This document shows positions 1 through 12,468 of a DNA stretch of 14,072 nucleotides, one piece after another. Origin of the DNA: a virus; the IMG/VR virus record IMGVR_UViG_3300043446_004346, positions 1 to 14,072 of that record; one strand, given 5' to 3'. Made by a program: the position numbers and the translations under genes. Every line of letters starts with the position of its first letter. The stretch's first letter is position 1. Under the pieces are notes generated by a model. It was not told the DNA's origin. It searched no databases and worked only from the letters and a program-made list of their open reading frames with translations.

Positions 1-127
1 GCGTCAGGTTCATATTTAATATAATAATAACCACCACCGTATCTATTAAACATTAAATAAATACCATCTGCCCTTTGTAGATACGAAAAAGGTCTGCCTA
101 CACTTGATCCTGACTGAAAAGTAAATA
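1..127. repeat. Terminal overlap, copy A (identical to 13946..14072); signature of a circular molecule
   Basis: Read directly: gcgtcaggttcatatttaat...ctgactgaaaagtaaata occurs at both ends with no mismatch. Offset 13945 nt. Confidence 0.95.
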
Positions 128-224
128 ATATTTTTCTAGGTTGTTCAGGTTTGTCAAATGCAGTCAATTGCTTTTTAGCAATCAAATTAACCTTAAGCAA
201 ATCACCAATGTTTATTTCAGGCAT
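1..224 (-). CDS. N-terminal part of a 132-aa ORF split by linearisation (MPEINIGDLLKVNLIAKKQLTAFDKPEQPRKILFTFQSGSSVGRPFSYLQRADGIYL...); continues at 13771..13945
   Basis: ATG at 224..222 lies 1 nt after the stop of the 226..921 ORF. The frame stays open to position 1 and joins the 13771..13998 track ORF once the 13945-nt offset is applied (399 nt in total). Confidence 0.7.
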   Translation of the reverse strand, partial: MPEINIGDLLKVNLIAKKQLTAFDKPEQPRKILFTFQSGSSVGRPFSYLQRADGIYLMFNRYGGGYYYIKYEPD

Positions 225-225
225 A

Positions 226-921
226 TTATTTCCTTAACATTTTAAGTAAGAAATTAAATTGCATTTTGTCATTTTCCGCCATTTCGCACAATAACAATAG
301 ATCATCCCCAAGTTGTTCATCACATTTTTTAAGTCTTTCAATTGCATTTGCAATTTTTTCATCATTGCTATCAGCTTCAACACCTGAAACGTGGGTAACT
401 TTTTGTTGTTGTTGCGGTGTAACTAAATTTGCTACTACATTCATAAGCATTTGTCTTACTGCAGGGTTACCCATTAAACCTGATAAAAGATTATTTTCGG
501 GTTCTTCTTCTTCCTCCTCATCTTCTTCCTCTAATTGCATTTGAAGTGCTGCAATTTGACTTTTAAGTGCAGTTATTTCATTTTGCATTTGTGGGTTATA
601 CATTCCAACTTGCTGCTGCATTAAACCATAATTTGATCTATTAAGTTGAAATGTGATTGTATTGTGTGCTTCTTTTTTCTTGCCTTTATCTCTTAATATG
701 ACAAGTAAATATGTGTTTGTGTTATCAGGGTTTGACATTACACTAGCCAGTGCGTCAGAAAGATGCTGCCTTCCTGTTATTTTATCATCACCATCATAAG
801 AAAACCTTCTGCAGGTTTCATCTATTTTATGTCCTGCATATACTGAATATGCAGCTTCATCATACTGATCATAATATGACAGTACACCTTCTGCGTCGTG
901 TAGTTCAGGTTTATAAGGCAT
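226..921 (-). CDS. Hypothetical acidic coiled-coil protein (231 aa), possible scaffolding or assembly factor
   Basis: Long ORF in the structural block. It has a heptad-like stretch NEITALKSQIAALQMQLEEEDEEEEEEPE, no TM segment and no enzyme motif I recognise. The function is a guess from position and composition. Confidence 0.7.
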   Translation of the reverse strand: MPYKPELHDAEGVLSYYDQYDEAAYSVYAGHKIDETCRRFSYDGDDKITGRQHLSDALASVMSNPDNTNTYLLVILRDKGKKKEAHNTITFQLNRSNYGLMQQQVGMYNPQMQNEITALKSQIAALQMQLEEEDEEEEEEPENNLLSGLMGNPAVRQMLMNVVANLVTPQQQQKVTHVSGVEADSNDEKIANAIERLKKCDEQLGDDLLLLCEMAENDKMQFNFLLKMLRK

Positions 922-938
922 ATATTATACATTTAAAA

Positions 939-956
939 GTGAAAGAAAAGTGATTA
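939..956 (-). promoter_or_regulatory. Conserved intergenic motif, copy 1 (plus-strand GTGAAAGAAAAGTGATTA; reads TAATCACTTTTCTTTCAC on the coding strand)
   Basis: 18-nt string identical to 3498..3515. It sits between the stop at 963 and the ATG at 921. Confidence 0.6.
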
Positions 957-962
957 ATCCTT

Positions 963-1388
963 TTAAGCATAATAAACACCAAAGCAAACACTATAGTTAC
1001 TTGCTGAAATACTACTGTATGCACTAGGTGTTAAAATGTATGACTTTGACCATACAATTTGCTGCCCTGCAAATGGAGTAATTGCAAATGCGTATGGATC
1101 AGCACTAGATGAATTTGAAGCAATTCTGTTAAGTTCTAGTACTGGTATTCGGTTTACACTTTCCTTGTCATTATAATAAAGTACCAAGTAAGTATTTTTC
1201 ATATTTGCTAGTGAAAGCAAAGGGTTACCACTTAAAATACTGTTTGTTAATACGTTGGGAGTATATGTAACTAGATTAAGCATTGATACAAAACGCAATT
1301 GCGGTTGATCTGCAAAATAAAATCTTGTACCTGTGCTGCTTTGTGGTACTATACACTCTATAAATTCATATTGATTAACCTTATTCAT
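963..1388 (-). CDS. Small beta-rich structural protein (141 aa); candidate single jelly-roll capsid or penton protein
   Basis: ORF directly downstream of the 222-aa capsid candidate. It has no TM and is rich in V/I/Y/T/N/S, with short alternating beta-like segments. The fold assignment is inference only. Confidence 0.65.
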   Translation of the reverse strand: MNKVNQYEFIECIVPQSSTGTRFYFADQPQLRFVSMLNLVTYTPNVLTNSILSGNPLLSLANMKNTYLVLYYNDKESVNRIPVLELNRIASNSSSADPYAFAITPFAGQQIVWSKSYILTPSAYSSISASNYSVCFGVYYA

Positions 1389-1460
1389 ATCGGTTTTTTA
1401 CAATTTTAAAAAATAGGGCTTCTATTTTTAACGTGCCATCGCCCATTGCAATACAATTTA

Positions 1461-2129
1461 TTAACGTACTGGAGTAACGTTTTGTGCCAAGATACCACGC
1501 ATAACCACAACAATTTTTGGTGCAGTTCCTGCCTGTAGTGTACCAATTGCTGCAGGAAGTTGAATAGTCAATTGATTATTCTTACTACCTACTAAAACAA
1601 TGTTTGGTTCTACTGGATAATATCCACTTTCAGTACCATCATTTTGATCAAGACCAGTGTTTGCAGTACCAGTGTAAATACCAGTTTGTGAAACACCTAT
1701 CCACAAATGACGATAAATATCCCATGAAGGCATGATCTGCCTGTTGTTTACAGTAAGTTGCAATTGACCATTGTAAAGGTTATACAATGCTGCAGATGCA
1801 CCAGCAGTACTGAAAACAGTTGCGTTTGGATATGTATAAAGTGGGAATGCAGTTGTAGTTGATGCTGCAGGTGCTGCAACAAAAATTCCAATTTGAGCAA
1901 CTACAAAAGCATCTTGCAAATTAAGCAAATTGTTTGTTACTGGTTGATAGTTATTTTGGTTGTCATTTACCAAAATGGGAATATGATATGAAGTTGTAGA
2001 AGTACTCATCAAAACTTCACTTCTAAGATAAGACTGGCTAAGAATAGCTTGATTAACGGAAAAACCTGCAGATTGTACAAGATTTTTTGCGTTATCAAAC
2101 ACTAACCTAGCATTCATTTGACTTGCCAT
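1461..2129 (-). CDS. Putative major capsid protein (222 aa, beta-rich, jelly-roll-like)
   Basis: It lies in the centre of the structural block and is flanked by the only sizeable intergenic spacers in that block. It has no TM and a beta-strand-rich composition (e.g. AFVVAQIGIFVAAP, LQLTVNNRQIMPSW, KIVVVMRGILAQN). No sequence family was recognised from memory. Confidence 0.6.
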   Translation of the reverse strand: MASQMNARLVFDNAKNLVQSAGFSVNQAILSQSYLRSEVLMSTSTTSYHIPILVNDNQNNYQPVTNNLLNLQDAFVVAQIGIFVAAPAASTTTAFPLYTYPNATVFSTAGASAALYNLYNGQLQLTVNNRQIMPSWDIYRHLWIGVSQTGIYTGTANTGLDQNDGTESGYYPVEPNIVLVGSKNNQLTIQLPAAIGTLQAGTAPKIVVVMRGILAQNVTPVR

Positions 2130-2164
2130 TTTCTTTTAGTTTATTTGTTTTAAAATTTTAAATA

Positions 2165-2587
2165 TTAATAATCTTCGTCCATTCCTGCCAAAACAGAAAG
2201 GTTATCAGGTTCATAACCTGCAACTACCGAAAGATCATCACCTGCCATAACTGAAACAGGAATTTCCATAGCTTGATCAATTGCACCTAGTACATTTGTT
2301 GCTTGTAGCAAACCAAGTCCACCTGCTGCAACCATTCCATCACCGATATTTTTACCAAATGATCCTTTAATGATGCTAGGGAAAAATGCACCAAGTGCAA
2401 TTACACCTGCTGACTTAATTTTTGCATCAAGATTTGGTAAAATCTTAGGTGAACTGGTGATCATTCTTGCTGCTGCTGCACCTACCACAAGTCCTGCTGC
2501 ATCCATCAAAAACGATTTTGAAATTTTTCCTACACTTCTTCTACGAGAACGGCGGTAAGATTTTGCCCTTTTTCTTCTTCTTGCCAT
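2165..2587 (-). CDS. Membrane protein with polyarginine N-terminus (MARRRKRAKSYRRSRRRS), Gly/Ala-rich TM core and acidic repeated C-terminus
   Basis: Hydrophobic segments GLVVGAAAARMI, AGVIALGAFFPSII and GMVAAGGLGLL. The C-terminal near-repeat is DDLSVVAG / DNLSVLAG. Confidence 0.7.
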   Translation of the reverse strand: MARRRKRAKSYRRSRRRSVGKISKSFLMDAAGLVVGAAAARMITSSPKILPNLDAKIKSAGVIALGAFFPSIIKGSFGKNIGDGMVAAGGLGLLQATNVLGAIDQAMEIPVSVMAGDDLSVVAGYEPDNLSVLAGMDEDY

Positions 2588-2631
2588 TTTTTTTAGTTTT
2601 TAATTGGTTTTGTGATAACTATATCAAGATT

Positions 2632-2886
2632 TTATTTATTATGAAATTTTCTCATAGCAGAAATGTTTTCTGCATAAAGTTTTAATTCCTTTTCAGATAC
2701 TTTTTTTAATTTAAAACTAGAATAACTTCCAATTATTCTAAATACTGCAGGTTTATAACTAACCTTAAAAGCATTAATACCTTCAATCAATGCTTCTTCA
2801 GTATCAGCAAAAAAATTCAGATCATCACGATATGGAAATTTAACTAAATATCCACCGTATTTTATGTTTACAACTATATTGTTCAT
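2632..2886 (-). CDS. Hypothetical protein (84 aa)
   Basis: ORF with a 4-nt overlap (2883..2886) with the upstream gene. No recognisable motif. Confidence 0.55.
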   Translation of the reverse strand: MNNIVVNIKYGGYLVKFPYRDDLNFFADTEEALIEGINAFKVSYKPAVFRIIGSYSSFKLKKVSEKELKLYAENISAMRKFHNK

Positions 2887-3206
2887 ACAAAAAATTTTAC
2901 TTTTCCTATTGATTTAAAACCACTTACTACTCTAATATTAACATTATGGCTTTTTGTGTCAGTGTGCATTTCACTTGATGACTTCTTTTTTCTAGCTTTT
3001 ACTTTTGTAGCTTTTACTGCACTTTTCTTTTTTACTTTACCAACACTAGCAACTTTCGATCCACTTCTTTTTTTGCTATATGATATTGCCCATGCTTGTT
3101 TTACTGCCTGTGCTTGTGTTAGCTTAGGGTTTTTCTTCCTTAATTTTTTGGCTTCCGCAACTACTGCTTTGAATTTTGCCCTAGCTGCTCGTTGTTTTGC
3201 AGTCAT
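2883..3206 (-). CDS. Lys-rich histone H1-like basic protein (107 aa), probable DNA-binding or condensing protein
   Basis: AKQRAARAKFKAVVAEAKKLRKKNPK...KVKKKSAVKATKVKARKKK. Very high K/A/R content and no TM. Confidence 0.7.
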   Translation of the reverse strand: MTAKQRAARAKFKAVVAEAKKLRKKNPKLTQAQAVKQAWAISYSKKRSGSKVASVGKVKKKSAVKATKVKARKKKSSSEMHTDTKSHNVNIRVVSGFKSIGKVKFFV

Positions 3207-3209
3207 TTT

Positions 3210-3491
3210 TTATTTTTTTAAAGTTTTTTTACACCAGTGTAACATTTCCTTTCCTCCCCACAATTGATAAGAAATATAACCACATTTAGACTGATCACCT
3301 ACATAAACTTTTGCTCTTTCTAAATATGAATATATTTTATTAACCATTTTTTCATTCAATCCTTTTTTGTTGATCAACATTCTAGCGGTTTTTACACCAG
3401 TACTGTTTTTACAACTTCCCTTTTCCATGTTTAATATAAGTCCTTCAATTGCGTTTTTTGTTGCCTTTACTGGGTAATTATAATACAACAT
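3210..3491 (-). CDS. Small conserved phage-type protein (93 aa) with an ...ARMLINKKGL...YLERA...YQLWGG...W signature
   Basis: ORF preceded by motif copy 2. From memory, the signature resembles a module seen at the N-terminus of head-maturation proteins of tailed phages. Not verified. Confidence 0.6.
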   Translation of the reverse strand: MLYYNYPVKATKNAIEGLILNMEKGSCKNSTGVKTARMLINKKGLNEKMVNKIYSYLERAKVYVGDQSKCGYISYQLWGGKEMLHWCKKTLKK

Positions 3492-3497
3492 ATAAAG

Positions 3498-3515
3498 GTG
3501 AAAGAAAAGTGATTA
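3498..3515 (-). promoter_or_regulatory. Conserved intergenic motif, copy 2 (GTGAAAGAAAAGTGATTA on plus)
   Basis: Identical to 939..956. It overlaps the stop codon of the 378-aa gene and ends 6 nt before the ATG at 3491. Confidence 0.6.
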
Positions 3516-4649
3516 TTTTTTTGCTATTAAATAAAGTGCAACTGCACCACCAACAATAAAAGGCAAATAGTTTTTCTTACCTTCTGCCTGATTAAATATT
3601 TTATCTACTTCACTTTGTTGCACCTGTTGTAATTTTTCCCCGCTTTCCAATTTTTTTTCAACTACATTTTTAACTTGTTTTGCAAGTACTCTTTTCCCAA
3701 CTTCCCCTACTTCCTTTACATCAATTCCAATTTTTCCTAGAAATTCTGCAACTTTTATAAGTATTGGTGCTGCAGTAACTGTAGCTGCTGCAGGTGCTGC
3801 TGCAACAACACCGATCTGTCCTTCGCTAGGAAATTCAATGTCATCACCAAGCAATCTCTTTTTTGCTGCACCTTGATTAACTTTTCTAAGAAGTTCATTT
3901 GCATCACCTCCTAAATTGTTCCACCAATCCACAGTAGCACTTGCCTTTGTGTCAAAAGCATTTTTTAACTTCGTTGCTAATCCCATAAAATTTAGTCCAA
4001 CTAGCAAAAGAAATGATCCCCTTGCAGGTGCTAAACTTATTCTTAATACTGTTTTTTTAACTGGTTTTGGTGCTGCAGCTTGTTTTGCTGCACCTATACC
4101 TGATACTTGATATAAAGGCATATTTGGCTTTTTATCTATTTTATGAAAATACGTTTTTCGTTCATTAAATCTGCTAAGTACTGGATCAACAAAATATTCA
4201 TTTCCGTTACGATCTTTTATTACTACAAAAACATGATGCGGAATTTCATCTAATAATTTATAACTAGCAAAACGAAAATTTAGATCATTATTGATCAATC
4301 CTTTTCTTTTTAAGCTATCCAGTACACCCATTGAAAACAAAGCATATCCTTTGCAATCAAATCCATCACTAGCAAGTGCAAGTAATGCACTAGGTGACAT
4401 GATCCGTTGCGACTGATCACTCTCTATTTTGTAACGGACATTTTGTTTAAGAAATTTGAAAACTTTCTTTGCAGTTTGAATGCCATCACCTGCGTAAAAA
4501 TCTTGACTAATTTTATCATATTCATTTTTATACTGGTTATGTGCTTTCAGCATTGCAGTCATAATATCAGGGACTTGTTGATCACGCACCAACAATTTAC
4601 GTTGTTTTTCAAATGGAGTAAGTCTGCCTAATAATGCAATGCGATCCAT
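3513..4649 (-). CDS. Papain-fold (transglutaminase-like) cysteine peptidase domain fused to C-terminal membrane anchors (378 aa)
   Basis: Cys-His-Asp pattern: GFDC99KGYALF, about 40 aa, then HH139VFVVIKDRNGNEYFVD155P, which matches the transglutaminase-core layout. TM-like segments LRISLAPARGSFLLLVGLNFMGL and NYLPFIVGGAVALYLIA. The ATG shares 1 nt with the upstream stop (TAATG). Confidence 0.75.
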   Translation of the reverse strand: MDRIALLGRLTPFEKQRKLLVRDQQVPDIMTAMLKAHNQYKNEYDKISQDFYAGDGIQTAKKVFKFLKQNVRYKIESDQSQRIMSPSALLALASDGFDCKGYALFSMGVLDSLKRKGLINNDLNFRFASYKLLDEIPHHVFVVIKDRNGNEYFVDPVLSRFNERKTYFHKIDKKPNMPLYQVSGIGAAKQAAAPKPVKKTVLRISLAPARGSFLLLVGLNFMGLATKLKNAFDTKASATVDWWNNLGGDANELLRKVNQGAAKKRLLGDDIEFPSEGQIGVVAAAPAAATVTAAPILIKVAEFLGKIGIDVKEVGEVGKRVLAKQVKNVVEKKLESGEKLQQVQQSEVDKIFNQAEGKKNYLPFIVGGAVALYLIAKK

Positions 4650-5083
4650 TAAAAAAGTTTTGATGAATATTCAAACGGAATTATCAAACCATCAATGTTT
4701 GTAGTTCCTTTAATCGTATATTTTGCACCTTTTGCAAATGCACCTTTTTCGGTTATTAATGACAATAAACCGATATTAGGTTTTGCAAATACACTCAAAT
4801 CGCTTTCACTTTTTGGTCGAATAGTTTGCACACCAAAACTTGCAAAATCAGCAACATATTTTCCGTTCACAAAAACTTCACCACTTATTGCGTTTATAGT
4901 TCCAGTAGTGTTTGTAGGGTTGATTACTTTGAAAATAATTTCTATTCGCTTTGAAATTCCACTTCCTGTTATGCGAATATTTTTAAAGGATAATTTTGTT
5001 TTGTCACCTAACTGCTTTTTACCATATAACCAGTATATGATGTAACCTGCAAACAGGTAAAAAAGCAAATTTTTGTTTTTCAA
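4649..5083 (-). CDS. N-terminally anchored LEA_2 / WHy-like beta-sandwich protein (144 aa), TTG start
   Basis: TM LLFYLFAGYIIYWLY followed by IEIIFKVINPTNTTGTINAISGEVFVNGKYVADF...YTIKGTTNIDGLIIPFEY, the typical LEA_2 pattern. The ORF has no ATG codon at all. The start codon at 5083..5081 is TTG. Confidence 0.65.
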   Translation of the reverse strand: MKNKNLLFYLFAGYIIYWLYGKKQLGDKTKLSFKNIRITGSGISKRIEIIFKVINPTNTTGTINAISGEVFVNGKYVADFASFGVQTIRPKSESDLSVFAKPNIGLLSLITEKGAFAKGAKYTIKGTTNIDGLIIPFEYSSKLF

Positions 5084-5100
5084 AATTTCTAACTTTTAAC

Positions 5101-5108
5101 CAAAACTA
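5101..5108 (-). promoter_or_regulatory. Candidate Bacteroidota -7 promoter box (TAGTTTTG = TAnnTTTG) for the late structural unit
   Basis: Exact match to the TAnnTTTG consensus, ending 17 nt upstream of the TTG start (5083). The nearest upstream TTTG is only 12 nt away, so the -33 element is poor. Confidence 0.35.
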
Positions 5109-5114
5109 TTGAAT

Positions 5115-5260
5115 ATTTTTCAAAAAAAAAAATATTAGGTCGGAAAAGTTGAAAAGAAGGTCAGTATCTAGGTTCACTTTCCCCTGTAGGGGGAAAGTGA
5201 CCTGCTGCCATCTTTCCAAGTGTTTTTTGACCTTACCAAAACTGACCTGACCTGTCCTTG
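5115..5260. promoter_or_regulatory. Origin-like or regulatory hub: A11 tract, GGTCR/TGACC iterons and a GC-topped hairpin
   Basis: A11 tract at 5122..5132. GGTCG at 5138 and GGTCA at 5159. TGACC at 5198, 5228, 5243 and 5248 (tgacctgacctg). Hairpin at 5171..5202. Confidence 0.5.
5171..5202. repeat. Inverted repeat or hairpin: TCACTTTCCCC (5174..5184), loop TGTAG, GGGGAAAGTGA (5190..5200); extends to GG/CC with one bulged T
   Basis: Perfect 11-bp stem read directly. Its arms contain the half-motif CACTTTC, which is related to the conserved intergenic motif. Confidence 0.8.
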
Positions 5261-5270
5261 TTTCATCTAA

Positions 5271-5290
5271 ATCACTTTTCTTTCACCTTT
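5271..5290 (+). promoter_or_regulatory. Conserved intergenic motif, copy 4, inverted orientation (ATCACTTTTCTTTCACCTTT on the plus strand)
   Basis: The 20-nt string equals the reverse complement of 3496..3515. It is the only copy that reads TCACTTTTCTTTCAC on the plus strand. Confidence 0.6.
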
Positions 5291-5291
5291 G

Positions 5292-5319
5292 ATAATAAAA
5301 AAAGGGCAAAATTGCCCTT
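5292..5319 (-). terminator. Intrinsic terminator of the early unit
   Basis: Stem AAGGGCA (5302..5308) / TGCCCTT (5313..5319). On the minus strand it is followed by TTTTTTTATT. It lies 29 nt downstream of the stop at 5348. Confidence 0.65.
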
Positions 5320-5347
5320 CTCTTGTTTTCCAGTGTTGATGCTAATA

Positions 5348-5539
5348 TCAAAAATCGTTTCTAAGGTACCTGCGGTGCGAAAATTTGCTGCTTTTTGCAA
5401 AATATAGGTTCATGTACCATGCACCCTCTTTTTCGGCAAATTTGGCAAAATTTTCAAGGTGTGAAATATTGCGGTATTTTCTAGGTCTTTTTTCCTTGTT
5501 AGGTTCAAAAAAGACAATTGCATTATAAATTTGTTTCAT
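5348..5539 (-). CDS. Hypothetical basic protein (63 aa)
   Basis: ORF bracketed by motif copy 3 upstream and a terminator downstream. No recognisable domain. Confidence 0.55.
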   Translation of the reverse strand: MKQIYNAIVFFEPNKEKRPRKYRNISHLENFAKFAEKEGAWYMNLYFAKSSKFSHRRYLRNDF

Positions 5540-5563
5540 TTTTAAATTTTTTCTAATTTTGAA

Positions 5564-5580
5564 TTGAAAGAAAAGTGGTT
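5564..5580 (-). promoter_or_regulatory. Conserved intergenic motif, copy 3 (degenerate: TTGAAAGAAAAGTGGTT on plus)
   Basis: The core TGAAAGAAAAGTG is shared with copies 1 and 2. It lies 25 nt upstream of the ATG at 5539. Confidence 0.45.
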
Positions 5581-5607
5581 TTTCGTTTTCGGAAGATCAT
5601 TTGTCGG

Positions 5608-5639
5608 TAGGCACTGGAAACAGTGCCTATTTTTGTTTG
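5608..5639 (+). terminator. Hairpin with plus-strand terminator geometry (TAGGCACTG-GAAA-CAGTGCCTA + TTTTTGTTTG), overlapping the ATPase stop codon
   Basis: 9-bp stem at 5608..5616 / 5621..5629 with a GAAA loop. The T-run follows only on the plus strand. On the minus strand it follows the TAG stop directly but lacks a U-tract. Confidence 0.4.
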
Positions 5640-6583
5640 TAAAGTTCACCGACTTTTATAATGTCTGACTTCTCAATCCACTCTTTTATAATCTTTTTTG
5701 CAGTTGTTGTGCTTTTACCTGTAAATTCTGCTAAATCATTTACAATATCATTATACTTTCTAGGTTCTACCAGTATGCGACTGATCAGCGACTTTTTTTC
5801 CATTCCGTAAATTAATCCTGTAGATTTTTTTTCAGTATGAATTTGTTGCCATTCATTGCCCTGATATTGTATGCTTATTGGATCGAAATCGTCAGTGCTT
5901 CTCAAAAATGTAGGATGTAGATCTATTGTTTTTTGCTCTTTATTTTTTTCAATCCTAAGTACTGCATTTGCTTTGCGGTCTAAATATGATCCTATATGTC
6001 CAATACTATTTTGATCTTTTTTACCCAAATGCAAAACGCAAATGATTAAAAGATCATGCACCTTAGTAATTTTTTTTAACCACTGAATAAGATAGAATGA
6101 CTGTTCAACACTGTTGAAATCACTGATTAAATCAAGTATTCCATCAATGACCAGTATTGAACAGTCCTTATTATCAGAAAGATAAATTTCAGTCATCTGC
6201 ATTATATCTGCAGGTTTATCCTCCCTAAATAAAAAACTGTCAAAATTGTGCGGAAAATGATCATACAACATTTGTTTCCTTGTACGATCTAAGTTTTTAT
6301 AGTAATCGTAATCACTACTTTCCGTATCAATATAGCACAGTCTTTTTCTATCTTTTGGAAAATTTAATTTCATTCCGAAAATATCCCATGTAGTGTAGGC
6401 AGTTGCAATGGCACCAGTTACAAATAATGTTTTACCTTGTTTTGGTAATCCACTAAAAACAACAATGCTTTGTGAAACACCTATTGTTTTACCATTGATA
6501 GTAAAAAGAATATTTTCATCTTTCGGTTGATAATCTTGCTTAAATTTTCTTTGTGATAGTTTCTCTTTAAGATCATTTGTCAT
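5627..6583 (-). CDS. RecA-fold RepA/DnaB-like (AAA_25-type) replication ATPase or helicase with C-terminal winged-helix domain (318 aa)
   Basis: Walker A GLPKQGKT and Walker B SILVIDGILD. LIICVLHLGKKD...GHIGS...ANAVLRIEK resembles the RepA-like sensor region. The C-terminus LAEFTGKSTTTAKKIIKEWIEKSDII is HTH-like. Confidence 0.8.
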   Translation of the reverse strand: MTNDLKEKLSQRKFKQDYQPKDENILFTINGKTIGVSQSIVVFSGLPKQGKTLFVTGAIATAYTTWDIFGMKLNFPKDRKRLCYIDTESSDYDYYKNLDRTRKQMLYDHFPHNFDSFLFREDKPADIMQMTEIYLSDNKDCSILVIDGILDLISDFNSVEQSFYLIQWLKKITKVHDLLIICVLHLGKKDQNSIGHIGSYLDRKANAVLRIEKNKEQKTIDLHPTFLRSTDDFDPISIQYQGNEWQQIHTEKKSTGLIYGMEKKSLISRILVEPRKYNDIVNDLAEFTGKSTTTAKKIIKEWIEKSDIIKVGELYKQK

Positions 6584-6586
6584 TGG

Positions 6587-6826
6587 TTACTTTTCTAAGA
6601 AACTGCAAAATTCCTCTGCTATTTGGAATGCCGCTTGAATAGCGAATTTACGATCTTCAACACTATCAACAATGTTATCATCACTGATTATCATTGCTTT
6701 TAGTATTTCCAGTGCCGCTACTTCCTGTTTTGTCATCCCTGCTAGAATGATCATTTGGTTGCTGAACTTGTCCATAAATTGCACTGGTTGTGCAGGTAAA
6801 TCCTTGTTTGTTTGTTGGCTTTGCAT
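6587..6826 (-). CDS. Hypothetical protein (79 aa; the true start may be an internal Met)
   Basis: ORF ending 3 nt before the ATPase ATG. An in-frame stop lies immediately upstream of its first ATG. It overlaps the zinc-ribbon ORF by 146 nt. Confidence 0.55.
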   Translation of the reverse strand: MQSQQTNKDLPAQPVQFMDKFSNQMIILAGMTKQEVAALEILKAMIISDDNIVDSVEDRKFAIQAAFQIAEEFCSFLEK

Positions 6827-6953
6827 CTTTTATTTTGTTTATGATTAAGCAATAAGGGCAAACAGTTGATCCATGTTTGCCCATGTGGTAAGTAACAGTA
6901 AAATACTTGTTACACTGGCAGCATCTCATTTGATCCATTTTTCTTTGCTGCAA
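6681..6953 (-). CDS. Zinc-ribbon protein (CxxC...CxxC: CCQCNKYF...VCPYC); the C-terminal half is low-complexity and overlaps the next gene
   Basis: The four-Cys ribbon lies in the first ~36 aa. The rest (KPTNKQGFTCTTS...TGSSGTGNTKSNDNQ) lies out of frame over 6681..6826. Confidence 0.5.
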   Translation of the reverse strand: MQQRKMDQMRCCQCNKYFTVTYHMGKHGSTVCPYCLIINKIKDAKPTNKQGFTCTTSAIYGQVQQPNDHSSRDDKTGSSGTGNTKSNDNQ

Positions 6954-7137
6954 CTAAATCCTCGTATTTGCAAAAATCATCCATTGCAAATTTGATAGAA
7001 TATTTGTGTAAGAAATACACTTTAAATAATCCATCATGCGGAATTTCTTTTTGGCTTAAAATGATGAAGGGATGTCCATTTGAAGTTTTTAGTGCTTCGC
7101 ACCAGTACTGCTTACCATTGTGTGAATACTTGTTCAT
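6910..7137 (-). CDS. Hypothetical protein (75 aa)
   Basis: ORF with a 4-nt overlap with the upstream gene (7134..7137). No recognisable motif. Confidence 0.55.
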   Translation of the reverse strand: MNKYSHNGKQYWCEALKTSNGHPFIILSQKEIPHDGLFKVYFLHKYSIKFAMDDFCKYEDLVAAKKNGSNEMLPV

Positions 7138-7415
7138 GCTAGGTTTGTTTTAAGTGATTGAATATTTAAATGTAGTTGATCTATTGTGTCCGCAAAAAGA
7201 CATTTTAATTCATTTTCCAGTACAAATGGCAAATCTGATTGATAAATAGTATAATGTTTACCGTCTGCAAAAAAATGTATTTGTATGTTATTAAACTGTT
7301 TTGCTTTGAGCAAATTTTGAAATTTTACAATCTTTTCTTCCTGAAATTGTATTTCATCAAACAATTCCTTTAAATCATTAAACATTGTGTATAAGTTTTT
7401 GCATTTGTAATTCAA
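7134..7415 (-). CDS. Hypothetical protein (93 aa as tracked; more likely 83 aa starting at 7385)
   Basis: Met11 at 7385 gives an ATGTTTAA-type 8-nt overlap with the upstream stop (7378..7380), which is more typical than a 38-nt overlap. Confidence 0.55.
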   Translation of the reverse strand: MNYKCKNLYTMFNDLKELFDEIQFQEEKIVKFQNLLKAKQFNNIQIHFFADGKHYTIYQSDLPFVLENELKCLFADTIDQLHLNIQSLKTNLA

Positions 7416-7581
7416 AATACCTACCGAATTGGAATGATATGTGCATTAAATGATGTTCATTTTCATAATACAGGATAAATTTAGTGTTATCCCCTACAAT
7501 TGTATCATGTCTGATATTGTAGTTTTTCAAAAATTGTTCCCATAACCTGTCTAGGTCATAAGCAATAACGATACTAGCCAT
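7378..7581 (-). CDS. Hypothetical protein (67 aa)
   Basis: ORF that starts 2 nt after the stop of the 39-aa micro-ORF. Confidence 0.55.
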   Translation of the reverse strand: MASIVIAYDLDRLWEQFLKNYNIRHDTIVGDNTKFILYYENEHHLMHISFQFGRYFELQMQKLIHNV

Positions 7582-7583
7582 AA

Positions 7584-7703
7584 TTAAAGTTTTTTTCTAA
7601 ATAATGAAATAATTTCTAGTGTTATCAGTGCCACTAGGTATAAAGGAATGCAGATTAGGATAAAATAAATTACTGATAATATCCAAGCTAATAACCTGAT
7701 CAT
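7584..7703 (-). CDS. Hydrophobic micro-protein, 39 aa (MIRLLAWILSVIYFILICIPLYLVALITLEIISLFRKKL), not in the ORF track
   Basis: Hand-translated. The TAATG junction couples it to the preceding 25-aa ORF. One long TM-like stretch and a basic C-terminus. Confidence 0.45.
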   Translation of the reverse strand: MIRLLAWILSVIYFILICIPLYLVALITLEIISLFRKKL

Positions 7704-7780
7704 TACATAAAATTATCTGCAAAACATATTGCTAAGGATAGCAAAAATAAGATCAGGACTTGTTTTTGTGTCTTTGTCAT
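7703..7780 (-). CDS. Hydrophobic micro-protein, 25 aa (MTKTQKQVLILFLLSLAICFADNFM), not in the ORF track
   Basis: Hand-translated. It is the first ATG after the candidate early promoter, and its stop overlaps the next ATG by 1 nt. Confidence 0.35.
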   Translation of the reverse strand: MTKTQKQVLILFLLSLAICFADNFM

Positions 7781-7816
7781 GTGGTTTTTGTTTTAGTTAA
7801 AAATCATTTGTCATGT

Positions 7817-7846
7817 CAATATTAAGATATTTTCCACATTTCCAAA
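7817..7846 (-). promoter_or_regulatory. Candidate Bacteroidota-type promoter of the early unit (TTTG, 18 nt, TAATATTG)
   Basis: On the minus strand: TTTG (7846..7843), an 18-nt spacer, then TAATATTG (7824..7817), one mismatch to TAnnTTTG. It lies just downstream of the late terminator. Confidence 0.4.
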
Positions 7847-7849
7847 AAA

Positions 7850-7882
7850 AAATATAAAAAAAGGGATCGTTGAAACGATCCC
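7850..7882 (-). terminator. Intrinsic terminator of the late structural and lysis unit
   Basis: Stem GGGATCGT (7863..7870) / ACGATCCC (7875..7882) with loop TGAA. On the minus strand it is followed by TTTTTTTATATTTTTTTTT. It lies 26 nt after the lysozyme stop. Confidence 0.75.
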
Positions 7883-7908
7883 CGCCCTATTCTCTCTGAA
7901 AATCAAAC

Positions 7909-8412
7909 CTATTTGAGAAATAATTCCTTTTCTAGCTGCCTTCTTTTAGTCAGTCCTGCACTTATTTTGCCGTTTATCTTATTCCACCTTAAAAACTGAT
8001 CAGCAACCTCTGATTTTGGCTTATTTTGGTTTAATAACCTAAGTAGTGTACTGCTTTGAAATGCACCTAATCCAATGTTATAAGCTAAACTGGTTAGTGC
8101 AGCTAATTGGTTAGCATTTATAGGTACTTTAATTAACTTACCTAGTGCGTATTGTCTTTTCTCAATATCCGTTTTTAGCCATCTTTCTGCAGTCGGTTTA
8201 TCAATTGTATCACCTTCTTTTATTGGTTTATTGGTGTCAGGGTTTATTGTAGTACCATAACCAATTGTCCAAATACCTGCGGTGTCAGGGTATGCCTTTA
8301 ATCTTTCGCCTTCAAAAACTTTTATAATATCAAATGCTTTCACCTTCTTTGCAGATAAGAGTAAAAAAATAACAATTGCAGCTATTATAATCCATTTCTT
8401 ATTGGACATCAC
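7909..8412 (-). CDS. GH24 (T4-type) lysozyme with N-terminal signal anchor (167 aa)
   Basis: FE34GERLKAYPD43TAGIWT49IGYG aligns residue for residue with the T4 lysozyme E11/D20/T26 motif. The N-terminus WIIIAAIVIFLLLSA is hydrophobic. Confidence 0.9.
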   Translation of the reverse strand: MMSNKKWIIIAAIVIFLLLSAKKVKAFDIIKVFEGERLKAYPDTAGIWTIGYGTTINPDTNKPIKEGDTIDKPTAERWLKTDIEKRQYALGKLIKVPINANQLAALTSLAYNIGLGAFQSSTLLRLLNQNKPKSEVADQFLRWNKINGKISAGLTKRRQLEKELFLK

Positions 8413-8560
8413 TGTCTTTTGCTAGTAATCCTGTAATAAGTATCCCAATACCTGAAACTACCTTTACCCAATCTTTTTGTGCAACACCATCACCAATTAG
8501 GGGTAATCCTGCAACTGATCCGAAAAAGCTAGTTTTAATGTTTTTTAGTATTCTTTTCAT
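8399..8560 (-). CDS. Holin-like small membrane protein, 53 aa (MKRILKNIKTSFFGSVAGLPLIGDGVAQKDWVKVVSGIGILITGLLAKDSDVQ), not in the ORF track
   Basis: Hand-translated. It overlaps the lysozyme start by 14 nt. The pattern KxxKT(S/T)xxG...G..LAKD resembles small proteins I recall next to endolysins in Bacteroidota phages. Not verified. Confidence 0.55.
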   Translation of the reverse strand: MKRILKNIKTSFFGSVAGLPLIGDGVAQKDWVKVVSGIGILITGLLAKDSDVQ

Positions 8561-8780
8561 CTTTTAATTTTTTATATTTTAAATAATTCAATGAAATAGT
8601 AACAATACAACTAACTGTAGATGCACTGGCAAATATGATCTTTGTCAGCTCGTCAATTTCTTGTAATCCAATTGCGGACAATAAAACGGTGCAGATTGTT
8701 GATACTACTGCAGGATCAGTTTGTTGCGTCATTGCTAGTTTCATCTTTTTGAAATTTTGCTGCAATAATGTTATAAGCAT
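8535..8780 (-). CDS. Two-TM class II holin-like protein (81 aa as tracked; probably 65-69 aa from Met at 8732 or 8744)
   Basis: TM1 AVVSTICTVLLSAIGL, TM2 IIFASASTVSCIVTISLNYL, basic tail KYKKLKDEKNTKKH. The upstream 54-aa ORF ends at 8716, which favours an internal start. Confidence 0.6.
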   Translation of the reverse strand: MLITLLQQNFKKMKLAMTQQTDPAVVSTICTVLLSAIGLQEIDELTKIIFASASTVSCIVTISLNYLKYKKLKDEKNTKKH

Positions 8781-8880
8781 TTATAACAGTTGCAGATTGA
8801 TCTAAAGTTGCAAAAACACCTTTACTTGTTGATAAGTCTAGTGCTGCTTTTAAAACTTCTAATGCTTGTTTTTCGTTCAT
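8716..8880 (-). CDS. Helical small protein, 54 aa (MNEKQALEVLKAALDLSTSKGVFATLDQSATVINAYNIIAAKFQKDETSNDATN), not in the ORF track
   Basis: Hand-translated. It fills an otherwise empty 111-nt gap and starts 11 nt after the stop at 8892. Confidence 0.5.
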   Translation of the reverse strand: MNEKQALEVLKAALDLSTSKGVFATLDQSATVINAYNIIAAKFQKDETSNDATN

Positions 8881-8891
8881 TTGTTCTTGTT

Positions 8892-9161
8892 TTATTGGTT
8901 AATAATTGTTAATCCTAAAGTAGTTGCAATATAATTATATGCGTAATCATTTGTTGTATAGTTATTATATTCAGGTTCACCCATTGTTACAGTACCAGTA
9001 GCTAGACTTTCACCCAATTGCCCTTGATTATCTGCACAAAGATTGTAACTAAATGATGCAAAACTTTCAAAGTTATCATAGTTTCCGTAACATGATAGCC
9101 ATACTGCTTCTGTTACTACACCATTATTCCAAATTTGTACTGGTTCAATTTGCTTTGCCAT
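8892..9161 (-). CDS. Hypothetical protein (89 aa) downstream of the spike gene
   Basis: ORF that overlaps the spike 3' end by 17 nt. It is Y/N-rich with no TM. It may be a spike accessory protein, judged by position only. Confidence 0.55.
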   Translation of the reverse strand: MAKQIEPVQIWNNGVVTEAVWLSCYGNYDNFESFASFSYNLCADNQGQLGESLATGTVTMGEPEYNNYTTNDYAYNYIATTLGLTIINQ

Positions 9162-12100
9162 ATAATTGTTTTAATTCTTCTATTTGTGCTTGTTGTTCTT
9201 GAATGGCTTTTATCAGCATTGGCACAAATACTGAATATTTTACTGATTTAGTAGTTGTTTCTAATTGATTTCCTTTTTTATCTATGTCAAAAGTTTCTTC
9301 AATCATTGAAGGAAATATTTCTTCTAATTCCTGCGCAATAACACCTATTTGTTTTATTTCACTACCAATTAAATTATAATTTCTAATTTTTACTTTCAAT
9401 AATTTATCAAGTTTAGGTGTTGCATCAATTATATTCTCTTTTAATTTTATATCAGATAAAGAACCATAACTATTATTTGCATTTTGGATATTACCATTAC
9501 CTATAATTTTGATATTAGTTGTACTACCAATATCACTATAACCAATAAAATGATTCCATCCAGTACCTGAAGCTGTATAAGACAAACTTGTTATTACACT
9601 TCCAGTAAAACTTGCAGTTGATTTTTCAGCATAATAAATAGATTCAGTAGTAGATGCGCCTTTGCTATATACTAATGCAGTTGGCGAACCACTCCCTATT
9701 CCGACATTGCCGCCCGAAGATATTCGGATGCGTTCGGTATCTGCAGTTGCAAATATTAATGGATAACTTCCGATTACATCTATTACTCCATATTCTCCAG
9801 CTGAATAAGAAGGACCTGTGTATCCTATAAGCATTTGTCTTGCTGCACTGTTCTTGAAATATAAAAGAGAAGTTGCAGTACTTACTGTATTTTCAATAGT
9901 TAATGTAGCATTTGCACCTGTCACACTTGAACTGAAGCTAGTTGAACCAGAATTATTTATTTGTAATAATGCTGCGTTATATGCCTGATTAACTATTCTT
10001 AATGGAGTTCCTGCCCCCAATTGAATATCGTTTACTGAACCTGCATAATTTAAATTAATAGCTAAAGGATAATTAGTAACAATTGTTGCATTCGACGTAA
10101 TATTTGAACTAAAAGTAGATGCTCCAGTTGCATCAATTAATAACCTCCTACCAAATGTACCACCTGACTTTGTATATAATTCAAAACCTCCTGATGTATT
10201 AAGATTAAATCCAAATGCCTTATCACCTGCAAAGTTTGCAAATTGTGCCTGTAATCCACTTCCGTAAGTATCTGACAAAGTATTTGATACCATGTAAGAA
10301 ACTGCTCTTTGTCCTGCACCTGTTGCATCAATCTTAAATGATCTACCTGCAATTAAACTTTCACCTGTTGCACCTTCTGAAGGGTTATTTGCTAGTACAC
10401 TTGCGTTGAATGATGCCTGACCATTGTTTTCCAATGTCATTGAAAGTGTAGCTGATCCACCTGCGGAAGTGTAAAATTTTAATCTTCCGTTTCCACTGTT
10501 AGCACCATCTAAGGTTGCAGCTATATAAGGGTTAGCATTTCCTAAACCAAAATTGATTGTTGTAATTGCTGCACCTGTTGAATAGTAATTATTTGTTAAT
10601 TGTAATGCAGTAAAAGACGCTGCATTACCTGTAAATATTGCATTGAGTCCATTCAATACACCAGTTAAAGTTGCTGCACCAACTACATCAAGTGCAACAC
10701 TAGGTGTTTTACCAATTCCCACATTTCCATAAAATCTTGCAGTTTTATCGTTTCTAGTCCAAAAAATGTCTGCACCGTTTGTATCTGCAACATTAAAGGC
10801 ATAATCACTAGCACCAGTTGAACTACCTTTTACATATAATGTTACGTTTGTAACTGGAGTATTATCCCCAAATACTGCCGATCCATTCTTTGCAATGCTA
10901 AATCTATCCACCCAAGATTGTGATACTGCAGATGCTGAACTTTGAAATCTTGCTAAATACAATGTAGTATCTGCGTCAGTTGATCTGACAAGTAAACCTT
11001 GTGAACTATCTTCTATATTTGTAACTGATAAGGCATAACCTGCCAAAGTTCCGCTAAATGCTGCAGTTGTACCATTTAATGCACCAGTTAATGTACCACC
11101 TGTTAAAGGCAAATATCCACTTAATGCACTGCCATAATTAGGTATATTTAATGTATTTCCTACAAATGTTGCAGCACCACTGCTACCAGTTGTTGTGAGT
11201 GATATTGTTGCCTGTTTGCTATTTAATTGTGTTTGTATAGCACTTGTAACACCTTTTACATAACTTATTTCAGTTAATGAAGGGTAAGTAGCGGTAGTTA
11301 GTGATCCTATTGTTGATCCAGTTGCGGTAAAATATGCTAATTCATTTATAGTACCTGTACCAGTTACAGGGTTAGTTAATGCTCCCTGATATTGCGGTAT
11401 ATTTAATGTATTTCCTACAAATGTTGCAGCACCACTCGTACCAGTTGTTGTAAGTGATATTGCATTTTGTTTGCTATTAAATGTACTCCAATCACTTGAT
11501 GAAAGTTTACCTGTATTTGTTGCAGATGCTACAGGTAAGTTAAATGTATGTGTACCACTGGAAGTTGAAATATTAAAATTAGTACCTGATGTACCAGTAA
11601 CTAAAAATTGTACTTGTTCAGTTGCACTATTTATTGCAGTAATTCCAGTACTAAATGTAGTTGCAATTTGTGCTAATCTTGTTGATTGGGTATAAAATGT
11701 TATTGTTCTACCATCATGTGTTACATAAAACCTTATTGCTAATCTATCAGTAAGTGTTAATACAGTTGCAGGTACTGCAATTGATGTATAATAAAGATCA
11801 ATAGAAGTACCACCAGTAATTACTTCGGGGTTTGATGAACTACTGGCAATTAATGAAAATGTAGTTCCATCGTATTTGTATAATTCAACATAAAAACTAG
11901 GGTTACCACCTGTTGAATTACTACTAAAATATGCTTGTATATTCCAGTTACCTGCAGGTATATTTAAAAGTGCAGGATCACCTGCATTTGTAATAAATTG
12001 TGCTATATATCCGTTAGCACTTATTGTAAAGTTTGCTGCAGTTCCAGTATTTGCAGTTTTACTCATTTGATAATAAGTATTTCCGCCAAAACTTCCCTGA

Positions 12101-12468
12101 CTTGTACCACCGTTCAAATAATAATTAACAGATGATCCACCTCCTGTATTTGGAAAATCTGCTAAAGTACCATCACCCCTAATATATTGTGAAACTGTAC
12201 CTGCACCAGTAACATTTAATGATCCACTACCTGTTATTGGTGAATTTGCTACATTAAATGCACTAGGCATTGATAAACCTACGGAAGTAACTGTACCTAC
12301 ATTACCTATTAAATCCCATGTTGAACCAGTATCCCTGTACCAAAGTTTTGTGTCAGTTGATACAAATAACCTGCCTGTTATACCTGCTGCAGGTCTATTT
12401 GCAAATACATCCGAATAAAACATCGGTGTACCAAACTGGTTCAATACTGAATAATCAACAACAATCAT
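9145..12468 (-). CDS. Receptor-binding spike or fibre (1107 aa) with C-terminal S74 intramolecular-chaperone autoproteolytic domain
   Basis: The C-terminus LS|SDIKLKENI...IGVIAQELEEIFPSMI...VKYSVFVPMLIKAIQEQQAQIEEL matches the Peptidase_S74 pattern (9148..9456). The body is long and G/S/T/N-rich and beta-helix-like. An 85-aa internal repeat carries SLTTTGxSGAATFVGNTLNIPxY. Confidence 0.85.
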   Translation of the reverse strand: MIVVDYSVLNQFGTPMFYSDVFANRPAAGITGRLFVSTDTKLWYRDTGSTWDLIGNVGTVTSVGLSMPSAFNVANSPITGSGSLNVTGAGTVSQYIRGDGTLADFPNTGGGSSVNYYLNGGTSQGSFGGNTYYQMSKTANTGTAANFTISANGYIAQFITNAGDPALLNIPAGNWNIQAYFSSNSTGGNPSFYVELYKYDGTTFSLIASSSSNPEVITGGTSIDLYYTSIAVPATVLTLTDRLAIRFYVTHDGRTITFYTQSTRLAQIATTFSTGITAINSATEQVQFLVTGTSGTNFNISTSSGTHTFNLPVASATNTGKLSSSDWSTFNSKQNAISLTTTGTSGAATFVGNTLNIPQYQGALTNPVTGTGTINELAYFTATGSTIGSLTTATYPSLTEISYVKGVTSAIQTQLNSKQATISLTTTGSSGAATFVGNTLNIPNYGSALSGYLPLTGGTLTGALNGTTAAFSGTLAGYALSVTNIEDSSQGLLVRSTDADTTLYLARFQSSASAVSQSWVDRFSIAKNGSAVFGDNTPVTNVTLYVKGSSTGASDYAFNVADTNGADIFWTRNDKTARFYGNVGIGKTPSVALDVVGAATLTGVLNGLNAIFTGNAASFTALQLTNNYYSTGAAITTINFGLGNANPYIAATLDGANSGNGRLKFYTSAGGSATLSMTLENNGQASFNASVLANNPSEGATGESLIAGRSFKIDATGAGQRAVSYMVSNTLSDTYGSGLQAQFANFAGDKAFGFNLNTSGGFELYTKSGGTFGRRLLIDATGASTFSSNITSNATIVTNYPLAINLNYAGSVNDIQLGAGTPLRIVNQAYNAALLQINNSGSTSFSSSVTGANATLTIENTVSTATSLLYFKNSAARQMLIGYTGPSYSAGEYGVIDVIGSYPLIFATADTERIRISSGGNVGIGSGSPTALVYSKGASTTESIYYAEKSTASFTGSVITSLSYTASGTGWNHFIGYSDIGSTTNIKIIGNGNIQNANNSYGSLSDIKLKENIIDATPKLDKLLKVKIRNYNLIGSEIKQIGVIAQELEEIFPSMIEETFDIDKKGNQLETTTKSVKYSVFVPMLIKAIQEQQAQIEELKQLYGKAN
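11141..11462. repeat. Two 67-nt near-identical direct repeats (11141..11207 and 11396..11462), period 255 nt, inside the spike gene
   Basis: ggtatatttaatgtatttcctacaaatgttgcagcaccact(g/c)(c/g)taccagttgttgt(g/a)agtgatattg, read directly. It encodes the duplicated 85-aa module. Confidence 0.85.

Follow-up and report, generated by a model that had tools for sequence, protein, structure and literature searches.

Adjacent predicted jelly-roll proteins as candidate capsid components in an apparently undescribed group of small aquatic phages

We analyzed the whole of the 14,072-nucleotide (nt) virus record IMGVR_UViG_3300043446_004346 from IMG/VR (positions 1–14,072; hereafter, the window), centering on two adjacent open reading frames (ORFs) that are candidates for the capsid proteins of a small phage and on the spacer that separates them. 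A 127-bp direct terminal repeat stands at the ends of the window (1–127 = 13946–14072), and because of this repeat we take the window to be a complete, probably circular genome with a unit of 13,945 bp. The minus strand holds all substantial ORFs of the window, including the two under study, which are arranged around the spacer as follows.

1461 to 2129, minus strand: ORF222, a protein of 222 amino acids (aa) with an ATG start.
1408 to 1450, minus strand: the spacer element, with a G+C stem (GGGC at 1444–1441, GCCC at 1419–1416), a 21-nt loop (GAUGGCACGUUAAAAAUAGAA, 1440–1420) and a U-run (1413–1408).
963 to 1388, minus strand: ORF141, a protein of 141 aa with an ATG start.

The initial annotation of this DNA had noted two consecutive ORFs with an unusually long spacer, and the coordinates, strand, lengths and 72-nt spacing (1389–1460) are all borne out. 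The spacer is the longest gap in the gene run at 226–5083 (41, 72, 35, 44, −4, 3, 21 and −1 nt), but five gaps elsewhere in the genome are longer (264, 186, 111, 87 and 83 nt). Homologs of ORF222 (218–222 aa) and of ORF141 (138–142 aa) align with them over the entire length with an invariant M1, and for this reason we consider both start codons correct.

Judged by their conservation, ORF222 and ORF141 are genuine genes and not chance ORFs. A word-indexed search returned 1523 homologs of ORF222, mostly at ~70% identity and 218–222 aa, on contigs that reach at most 12–14 kb, compared with 187 detectable homologs of ORF141. Given this difference in numbers, together with the fewer bits per residue that ORF141 retains in distant relatives, ORF141 evidently evolves faster than ORF222. 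An exhaustive profile search put the ORF222 family at 946 representatives (clustered at 50% identity), nearly all of which are 210–290 aa long and 142 of which fell below 1e-30; the family was confined to contigs of no more than about 18–22 kb. About a dozen distant representatives (P0267, P0299, P0319, P0324–P0327, P0334, P0350, P0353, P0357, P0373 and P0378, and positions 3073–3942 of the relative L010) carry an N-terminal extension of 50–95 aa with one or two hydrophobic helices.

Homologs of the two proteins are annotated in every source as 'hypothetical protein' at most. Scans of all larger ORFs against Pfam, PHROGs and NCBIfam gave no match for either, and among 113 diverse relatives of ORF222 Pfam gave three single chance-level matches and nothing else, with no single-jelly-roll (SJR) coat family. 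Translated searches (tblastn) of 50,697 GenBank phage records in six frames found no relative of ORF222 or ORF141 at E up to 1, nor of two neighboring gene products described below, ORF231 and ORF378, and a whole-genome megablast search against GenBank phages also returned no match. Nothing relevant was found among all PDB chain sequences (phmmer and hmmsearch, E up to 10, including a 113-sequence profile). The ORF222 and ORF141 profiles showed no similarity to each other with hhalign, and the two families are unrelated.

Both proteins had been described as soluble and rich in beta-strands. Apart from a hydrophobic core strand at residues 68–86 of ORF222, neither has a transmembrane-like segment, and the AlphaFold2 (AF2) monomer models, with strands assigned by DSSP, are beta-sandwiches in both cases. 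The ORF222 model (predicted local distance difference test, pLDDT, 69.7; predicted template modeling score, pTM, 0.71) has about nine strands, at ~29–40, 47–50, 73–85, 122–127, 130–137, 170–180, 186–190 and 205–216, with an N-terminal helix at 2–20, a helix at 111–119 and a disordered, variable, low-confidence loop at 145–166. The ORF141 model (pLDDT 81.9, pTM 0.79) has seven or eight strands.

In Foldseek comparisons almost all structural matches were viral jelly-roll capsid proteins, with weak scores. Nearly every PDB match listed for ORF222 was of this kind (picornavirus VP2, tymovirus, circovirus, geminivirus), and the top template modeling (TM) scores and probabilities belonged to iridovirus double-jelly-roll (DJR) major capsid protein (MCP) chains (probability 0.85–0.93, TMq 0.38–0.39). 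Six BFVD matches of ORF222 fell below 1e-3 and were mixed, comprising one 'Capsid', plant-virus movement-type proteins and uncharacterized proteins; capsid proteins of circular Rep-encoding single-stranded (CRESS) DNA viruses and a ranavirus MCP fragment lay just above that value, and the top TM score went to an unnamed 211-aa viral protein (TM 0.46/0.48, probability 1.0). The top match of ORF141 was a capsid chain, either VP4 or VP10, of the portoglobovirus SPV1 (Sulfolobus polyhedral virus 1), 6oj0_A (E 9.7e-3, probability 0.92, TM 0.39); further matches were jelly-roll cement proteins of two phages, giant-virus DJR MCPs, cellular tumor necrosis factor (TNF)-like and cupin folds and, low in the list, VP17 of P23-77. 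The prediction for both proteins is thus consistently a capsid-like jelly roll, at weak scores.

The lowest PDB E-values of ORF222 were those of the picornavirus, tymovirus, circovirus and geminivirus coats, and CRESS capsids were frequent in BFVD, as would be expected if ORF222 tiled a membraneless T=1 to T=4 shell of horizontal jelly rolls that closely encloses the nucleic acid, in the manner of microviruses, CRESS-DNA viruses and ssRNA viruses, with ORF141 as a decoration or spike-base protein. An Arg-rich protein gene adjoining the ORF222 gene and a rolling-circle replication (RCR) Rep in one relative also fit such a capsid. Those same matches, however, have the lowest TM scores (0.2–0.3), below those of DJR halves; no coat family of Pfam or PHROGs was matched, nor did the window yield a Rep; and the variants of ORF222 fused to transmembrane helices, together with several small membrane proteins, point towards a membrane. 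Going by the known capacities of microvirus and CRESS capsids, 13.9 kb would also be too large for a T=1 shell of a 222-aa protein. We regard a horizontal jelly-roll capsid as improbable.

The initial annotation held that 222 aa is short for a DJR protein and that PM2 P2, at about 270 aa, is the smallest known. This argument has been overtaken by P5 of PhiCjT23, a DJR MCP of 239 aa (PMC9719478), because of which size alone cannot exclude a DJR for ORF222; the conclusion itself, that ORF222 has a single jelly roll, is favored by its strands and by coevolution. We analyzed coevolution with a mean-field method in 258 members of the ORF222 family (effective number 132), scoring low-gap columns only since raw scores were dominated by indel columns. 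Antiparallel ladders appeared at 75–212, 82–208 and 87–205 (strands D–I), 88–171 and 92–170 (D–G), 30–215 (B–I) and 125–187 (E–H). They trace the BIDG/CHEF wiring of one jelly roll across the full chain, in an analysis that is noisy and overlaps the input of AF2. Because the ladders join residues 30 and 74–92 to 169–218, the N- and C-terminal halves of ORF222 would lie in one sheet and not in two consecutive barrels.

These observations bear directly on the alternative that ORF222 is a compact DJR MCP forming trimers of the FLiP and PhiCjT23 kind, with ORF141 as its penton. ORF222 is just 17 aa below the smallest solved DJR MCP, which comes from a Flavobacterium phage that has no packaging ATPase (PMC9719478, PMC5894146), its top-TM PDB matches are the iridovirus DJR MCPs, and a relative (L010) has a rolling-circle Rep, as FLiP-like phages do; about one-third of the AF2 model is coil or of low confidence and could conceal strands. 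The model nevertheless has only about nine strands, several of them 11–13 residues long, and the ladders unite the two halves. Profiles of ORF222 and ORF141 compared with all FLiP and PhiCjT23 proteins (hhalign and hmmsearch) gave nothing, with probabilities of at most 0.2%, and no PhiCjT23 or FLiP chain was within the top 50 Foldseek matches of ORF222. A minimal DJR is, in our assessment, very unlikely.

The two genes had been placed at the center of a structural block, which is reasonable given a conserved core order of ORF378-like ... ORF140-like, ORF222, ORF141, ORF231-like ... ORF133-like and fiber genes. In IMG/VR loci the ORF141 homolog lies directly behind the ORF222 homolog in 70 of 70 non-truncated cases, and the order Arg-rich membrane protein, ORF222, spacer with hairpin and U-run, ORF141, ORF231 is constant at 70%, 50% and 28–35% identity of ORF222; further along in relatives come the ORF133-like small gene and then the fiber gene. 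Scans of the window ORFs against the family libraries (Pfam, PHROGs and NCBIfam) revealed no HK97-type capsid protein, portal, terminase or other capsid candidate.

The weak fold matches and the commonness of jelly rolls outside capsids leave room for another explanation, in which ORF222 and ORF141 are membrane-associated matrix, lectin-like or receptor-binding proteins of a particle that is pleomorphic or unconventional in some other way, or else assembly factors, and the shell comes from an unannotated ORF; membrane anchoring of the ORF222 domain in some relatives is in line with this. The rest of the conserved core offers little from which to build a shell, as it consists of a transglutaminase-like protein with transmembrane segments, an Arg-rich membrane protein, an acidic coiled-coil protein, an ~80-aa domain and a fiber, and the uniform length and strong conservation of ORF222, with a terminator right behind its gene, are the usual signature of an MCP gene. 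We therefore consider a role outside the shell rather improbable, although a little less so than the horizontal capsid above, and think it highly probable that ORF222 is the major capsid protein, with a predicted single jelly roll. ORF141 is best explained, from its modeled fold, as a second, smaller jelly-roll virion protein.

The spacer behind the MCP gene holds an element of ~45 nt, found at the same site in close relatives (L001, L002 and L014–L093), with the consensus UUGGAAAGGGGGAUGCCACGUUAAAYAUAGAACCCCUAUUUUUU. Among these the stem is 4–5 bp and the loop 21–22 nt long, and in the window an additional helix is possible (1450–1448 with 1436–1434). Mean pairwise identity of the element in 59 dereplicated genomes is 87.6%; the MCP gene has 75% overall, 56% at third codon positions and 83.7% in its most conserved 45-nt stretch. 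The element is present in a single copy per genome and on the sense strand only. When 2.9 million IMG/VR contigs were searched with a 22-nt degenerate pattern, 70 stretches matched, 69 of which were in this phage group beside the MCP or ORF141 gene; the 70th was a chance occurrence within an unrelated ORF.

Covariation in the element is suggestive only. The innermost stem pair (columns 17–40) varies among G-C, U-G and C-G, and a pair between the 5' flank and the loop (columns 10–23) is G-C in 16 sequences and C-G in 9, with none unpaired, a pattern suggestive of a helix that would be pseudoknot-like. Both covarying-cell measures were above all 500 shuffles and all slid controls, for sequences that are related and helices that are short. 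RNAalifold retained the 4-bp main stem alone, and Rfam gave no gathering-score match in the window and one chance-level match in the spacer (E=2).

A hairpin with a T-run stands behind the MCP gene in close and distant relatives alike, the distant ones having ordinary strong hairpin and T-run terminators at the corresponding site. Our reading is that the spacer element is a terminator or attenuator that leaves MCP in excess, and that the loop took on a sequence-specific function in one clade, with protein binding, a pseudoknot and 3'-end stability as candidates. A mini-ORF in the loop was rejected, as its ATG is not conserved, and a promoter, which would leave the covarying pairs unexplained, is not favored. 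The element is a candidate new regulatory RNA and could serve as a specific nucleotide probe for the group.

As a separate observation, 6 of the 69 element-bearing IMG/VR contigs (L101, L107, L108, L126, L128 and L133) begin or end within 100 nt of the spacer element, where ~2 are expected. The assembly graph probably accounts for this, as co-occurring strains have the sequence in common, although a real genome end or nick site may lie there instead.

We favor, at about even confidence for the combination, a reading in which ORF222 is a single-jelly-roll MCP and ORF141 a minor or penton protein. The penton is the role favored for ORF141 because its size is near that of SJR pentons (~120–150 aa), its gene adjoins the MCP gene, it diverges faster and a terminator-like element lies ahead of it. 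The initial annotation had offered two options, a capsid of two SJR proteins or a capsid protein plus a penton; both draw on a predicted jelly-roll-type pair that holds up as a conserved module and as the sole capsid candidates of the window, while the structure matches behind them are all weak.

In the first of these options ORF222 and ORF141 would together form pseudo-hexameric capsomers of vertical SJRs, like those of P23-77, HCIV-1 and, reportedly, the Salisaeta phage SSIP-1, and the penton would be found elsewhere, for example in ORF133, a small gene product described below. Neighboring jelly-roll genes kept as a pair are what such a system would show, and SSIP-1, a phage said to encode two MCP types (PMC6356626), has two structural genes side by side whose products are 210 and 211 aa long; the unnamed 211-aa viral protein that is the top-TM BFVD match of ORF222, perhaps an SSIP-1 protein, also speaks for it, as does P23-77 VP17 far down in the ORF141 list. 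Against this, the FtsK/HerA-type ATPase that accompanies the MCP pair in the P23-77 group (PMC8812541) is absent, neither protein has sequence or profile similarity to any solved SJR MCP or to SSIP-1 gp45 and gp46, the terminator-like hairpin between the genes hints at unequal dosage, and ORF141 is penton-sized at 141 aa and diverges faster than ORF222. We judge a two-MCP system unlikely, though less so than any of the other alternatives considered.

Several points weigh against our preferred combination of a single-jelly-roll MCP with a penton. Foldseek returned no PDB match below 1e-3 for ORF222 or ORF141, with TM scores of 0.25–0.39 in PDB and at most 0.48 in BFVD, and the ORF222 model is of medium confidence, the alignment used for folding being shallow, with no sequence below 67% identity. 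The TNF-like, cupin and carbohydrate-binding module (CBM) matches of ORF141 are a reminder that jelly rolls occur beyond capsids. The penton is the most likely assignment for ORF141, yet one made from size, position and analogy only; the vertex of PhiCjT23 is a small beta-barrel and not a jelly roll (PMC9719478), and ORF133 is an alternative candidate for the vertex base. The hairpin of the window is weak (4 bp with a 21-nt loop) and was missed by a consensus terminator scan because its loop is too long. By codon usage, taken as a proxy for expression, ORF222 did not stand out from ORF141 as the more strongly expressed of the two.

The remaining genes of the window to which our interpretation refers are the following.

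226 to 921, minus strand: ORF231, acidic and coiled-coil-like, directly downstream of ORF141.
2165 to 2587, minus strand: ORF140, with an Arg-rich N-terminus (MARRRKRAKSYRRSRRRS), a Gly/Ala-rich hydrophobic middle and an acidic C-terminus.
3513 to 4649, minus strand: ORF378, transglutaminase/papain-like in its N-terminal part, with hydrophobic segments towards the C-terminus.
5627 to 6583, minus strand: ORF318, an AAA_25/DnaB-like P-loop protein of the replication region.
9145 to 12468, minus strand: a fiber of 1107 aa with a C-terminal Peptidase_S74 intramolecular chaperone (PF13884, E 4.7e-10) and matches to PHROG tail-fiber families.
12465 to 12866, minus strand: ORF133, a small conserved gene directly before the fiber gene.

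Homologs of ORF140 and ORF231 occupy the same slots, directly upstream of the MCP gene and directly downstream of the ORF141 homolog, in L006, L007, L009 and L010. From its composition we propose that ORF140 is a DNA-binding, membrane-associated virion protein. ORF231, which gave sub-threshold weak matches at most in the family scans, is at a guess an assembly or scaffold factor. In L009, the most distant relative examined, an additional ORF of 155 aa (7944–8411) lies between the ORF141 and ORF231 homologs. Also encoded in the window are the Lys-rich ORF107 (32 Lys and Arg residues in 107 aa), several small membrane proteins and a lysozyme that bears a signal anchor at its N-terminus.

ORF378 gave weak Pfam matches to Tox-PLDMTX and the transglutaminase-like DUF553, and its Cys (FDCKGYA), His (PHHVFVV) and Asp (FVDP) are in the order expected. 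It has a transmembrane-like segment at 279–297, and its homologs are present in all distant relatives, apparently as two ORFs in L009; it is a possible virion-associated wall-degrading or membrane protein. ORF133 homologs, which also precede the fiber gene in L006, L007, L009 and L010, have a conserved C-terminal domain of ~80 aa with the motif CNxIxFINTGTT. Fibers of relatives range from 370 to 1107 aa and retain the N-terminal ~55 aa, and we propose that ORF133 and the fiber (9145–12866) may constitute a vertex and receptor-binding module. Beside this module, ORF298 (12878–13774, minus strand) is rich in Pro, Lys, Ala and Val, with an N-terminal hydrophobic segment and no family match, and contains an internal duplication in which APVAAKPLPVAKKPSVPA[LS]ITKAVA is present twice.

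The only genuine Walker A motif of the window is in ORF318, its sole P-loop protein, and no packaging ATPase of the FtsK/HerA superfamily was found in the window; Pfam, PHROGs and other family scans of the window likewise detected no Rep. In the complete 12.8-kb relative L010, ORF318 is replaced by a Rep_1 rolling-circle initiator (10869–11828), which shows the replication module, as far as these gene contents go, to be exchangeable between relatives. L010 is without any credible P-loop protein, and the morphogenesis module therefore appears to function without a virus-encoded packaging ATPase. The Rep_1 swap in L010 also raises the question of single-stranded DNA packaging in the group or part of it.

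We hypothesize that ORF222, folded into a single jelly roll of eight strands behind an N-terminal helix, would form the capsid shell, and that pentamers of ORF141 would close the fivefold vertices and bear the fiber. The shell would assemble on a lipid vesicle studded with small membrane proteins, and the N-terminus of the MCP is suggested to face the membrane because distant homologs have hydrophobic helices ahead of the jelly-roll domain. The Arg-rich ORF140 and Lys-rich ORF107 would condense the genome, a mode we propose in place of pumping because no packaging ATPase is encoded. Transcription would end or be attenuated at the hairpin and U-run behind the MCP gene, so that MCP would exceed ORF141 and the products of later genes. 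The sequence analysis itself shows the genes with their conservation and synteny, the predicted folds, the missing ATPase and the conserved element in the spacer; the capsid role, stoichiometry, membrane and packaging mode in this scheme are all inferred.

The window belongs to a large, widespread and apparently undescribed group of probably tailless phages with circular genomes of 11.7–13.9 kb, known from aquatic metagenomes. Terminal repeats were present in 18 of 80 IMG/VR loci, with unit lengths of 11.7–13.5 kb. Our literature search found no description of the group, an absence of evidence within the resources searched. Two candidate kin were set aside. The 'Bacteriophage sp.' contigs from human feces (L003–L005; MT836017, MT836458 and MT836227; 13.5–14.8 kb) contain no homolog of ORF222 or ORF141; they are unannotated, encode a protein ~30% identical to ORF318 and may be a separate group of small-genome phages with a common replication gene. 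The 4.6-kb 'Charybdis' elements were rejected as something else.

A Shine-Dalgarno-like motif precedes 1 of 23 genes (25 nt upstream scanned), and the leaders are A-rich. Initiation led by Shine-Dalgarno motifs is largely absent from Bacteroidota. The closest isolate relatives of ORF318 are primase/helicases of Flavobacterium and Olleya phages, and these helicase relatives and the leaders suggest a Bacteroidota host; the lysozyme is of a generic Gram-negative phage type and is uninformative in this respect. A scan of 185,579 GTDB species genomes for hosts and prophages matched four short contigs of metagenome-assembled genomes (MAGs) only, and thus yielded neither a prophage nor a host.

Tailless phages that contain a membrane are regarded as common in aquatic environments but poorly sampled, and capsid proteins are the main markers by which they are detected and classified. 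Since none of Pfam, PHROGs, NCBIfam, PDB and the GenBank phages contains a match to the ORF222 family, marker-based surveys would miss this whole group. It is possible, though doubtful at present, that these are the first bacterial viruses built like SPV1, with hexamers of vertical SJRs, SJR pentons, an internal membrane, a protein-condensed genome and no ATPase, and that behind their MCP gene lies a previously unreported structured RNA, strongly conserved, which controls capsid-gene dosage. If this were true, a sizable aquatic group of global distribution (its MCPs forming 946 clusters at 50% identity) with circular genomes of 12–14 kb and swappable replication modules would place in Bacteria the proposed 'ancestral state' of Singelaviria, the single-jelly-roll realm. 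The fold class is already known, as are the ideas of an MCP plus penton and of two SJR MCPs. What this analysis adds is the protein families themselves, a phage group of such size and spread, the pairing of these features with a missing packaging ATPase in a bacterial context, and the element conserved in the spacer.

The initial annotation had called such an arrangement unusual for a Bacteroidota-like phage; jelly-roll capsids are not unusual there, as FLiP and PhiCjT23 infect Flavobacterium and the Salisaeta phage SSIP-1 has been reported with two MCP types (PMC6356626). FLiP and PhiCjT23 are tailless, have lipid in their virions and small circular genomes, and encode no packaging ATPase (PMC9719478, PMC5894146); as in the window phage, their MCP gene is followed by small structural genes, and the MCP of PhiCjT23, at 239 aa, is very close in size to ORF222. 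Theirs is a DJR MCP; for ORF222 both the predicted fold and the coevolution indicate a single jelly roll. The window phage also has a helicase-like replication protein instead of Rep and a genome 1.5–1.8 times larger. SSIP-1 is a membrane-containing tailless phage of a Bacteroidota-related host, with adjacent gp45 and gp46 genes (210 and 211 aa), and is reported to encode two MCP types (PMC6356626). Its genome is 43.8 kb versus 13.9 kb for the window, the folds of its MCPs are unsolved as far as PDB searches show, and ORF222 and ORF141 profiles had no similarity to SSIP-1 proteins.

Pentons of the PRD1 P31, PM2 P1 and FLiP P12 type are SJR proteins of ~120–150 aa, encoded near the MCP gene, that form a spike-bearing fivefold vertex (PMC9719478). 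ORF141 resembles them in size, predicted fold class and gene position, without sequence similarity; PRD1 P31-type pentons pair with DJR MCPs, whereas ORF222 is predicted to be single. The Helvetiavirae/Singelaviria (P23-77 VP16/VP17, IN93, SH1 and HCIV-1 VP7/VP4) have adjacent vertical-SJR genes and an internal membrane, and a separate SJR penton (VP9) of ~146 aa with an N-terminal helix (PMC6414509, PMC12714852). The earlier comparison with sphaerolipovirus-type viruses fits the adjacent genes for predicted jelly-roll proteins but not the FtsK/HerA packaging ATPase, which adjoins the MCP genes in that group and is missing here. Genomes of the Helvetiavirae are 17–30 kb with extremophile hosts, while in the window phage the larger gene comes first and a terminator-like element separates it from the smaller one, and no homology to VP16/VP17 or VP7/VP4 was seen (tblastn of GenBank phages, E up to 1; phmmer and hmmsearch of all PDB chains, E up to 10). 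By these comparisons membership of any known family fails on sequence, and that of the helvetiavirus group also on the missing ATPase.

SPV1 (Portogloboviridae) has a membrane-containing capsid of SJR VP4 hexamers and SJR VP10 pentons; a basic protein condenses its DNA, and a packaging ATPase is absent (PMC8459092, PMC8812541). No SPV1 chain (VP4 or VP10) was found in PDB sequence and profile searches with ORF222 and ORF141, and SPV1 differs in its archaeal hyperthermophile host, 20-kb genome and T=43 capsid of 87 nm, the window phage in its lysozyme and long S74-type fiber. Like SPV1, the window phage has no packaging ATPase; it also encodes two proteins predicted to be SJR-like and others rich in Arg or Lys that may condense DNA, and by analogy we regard SPV1 as its closest architectural counterpart.

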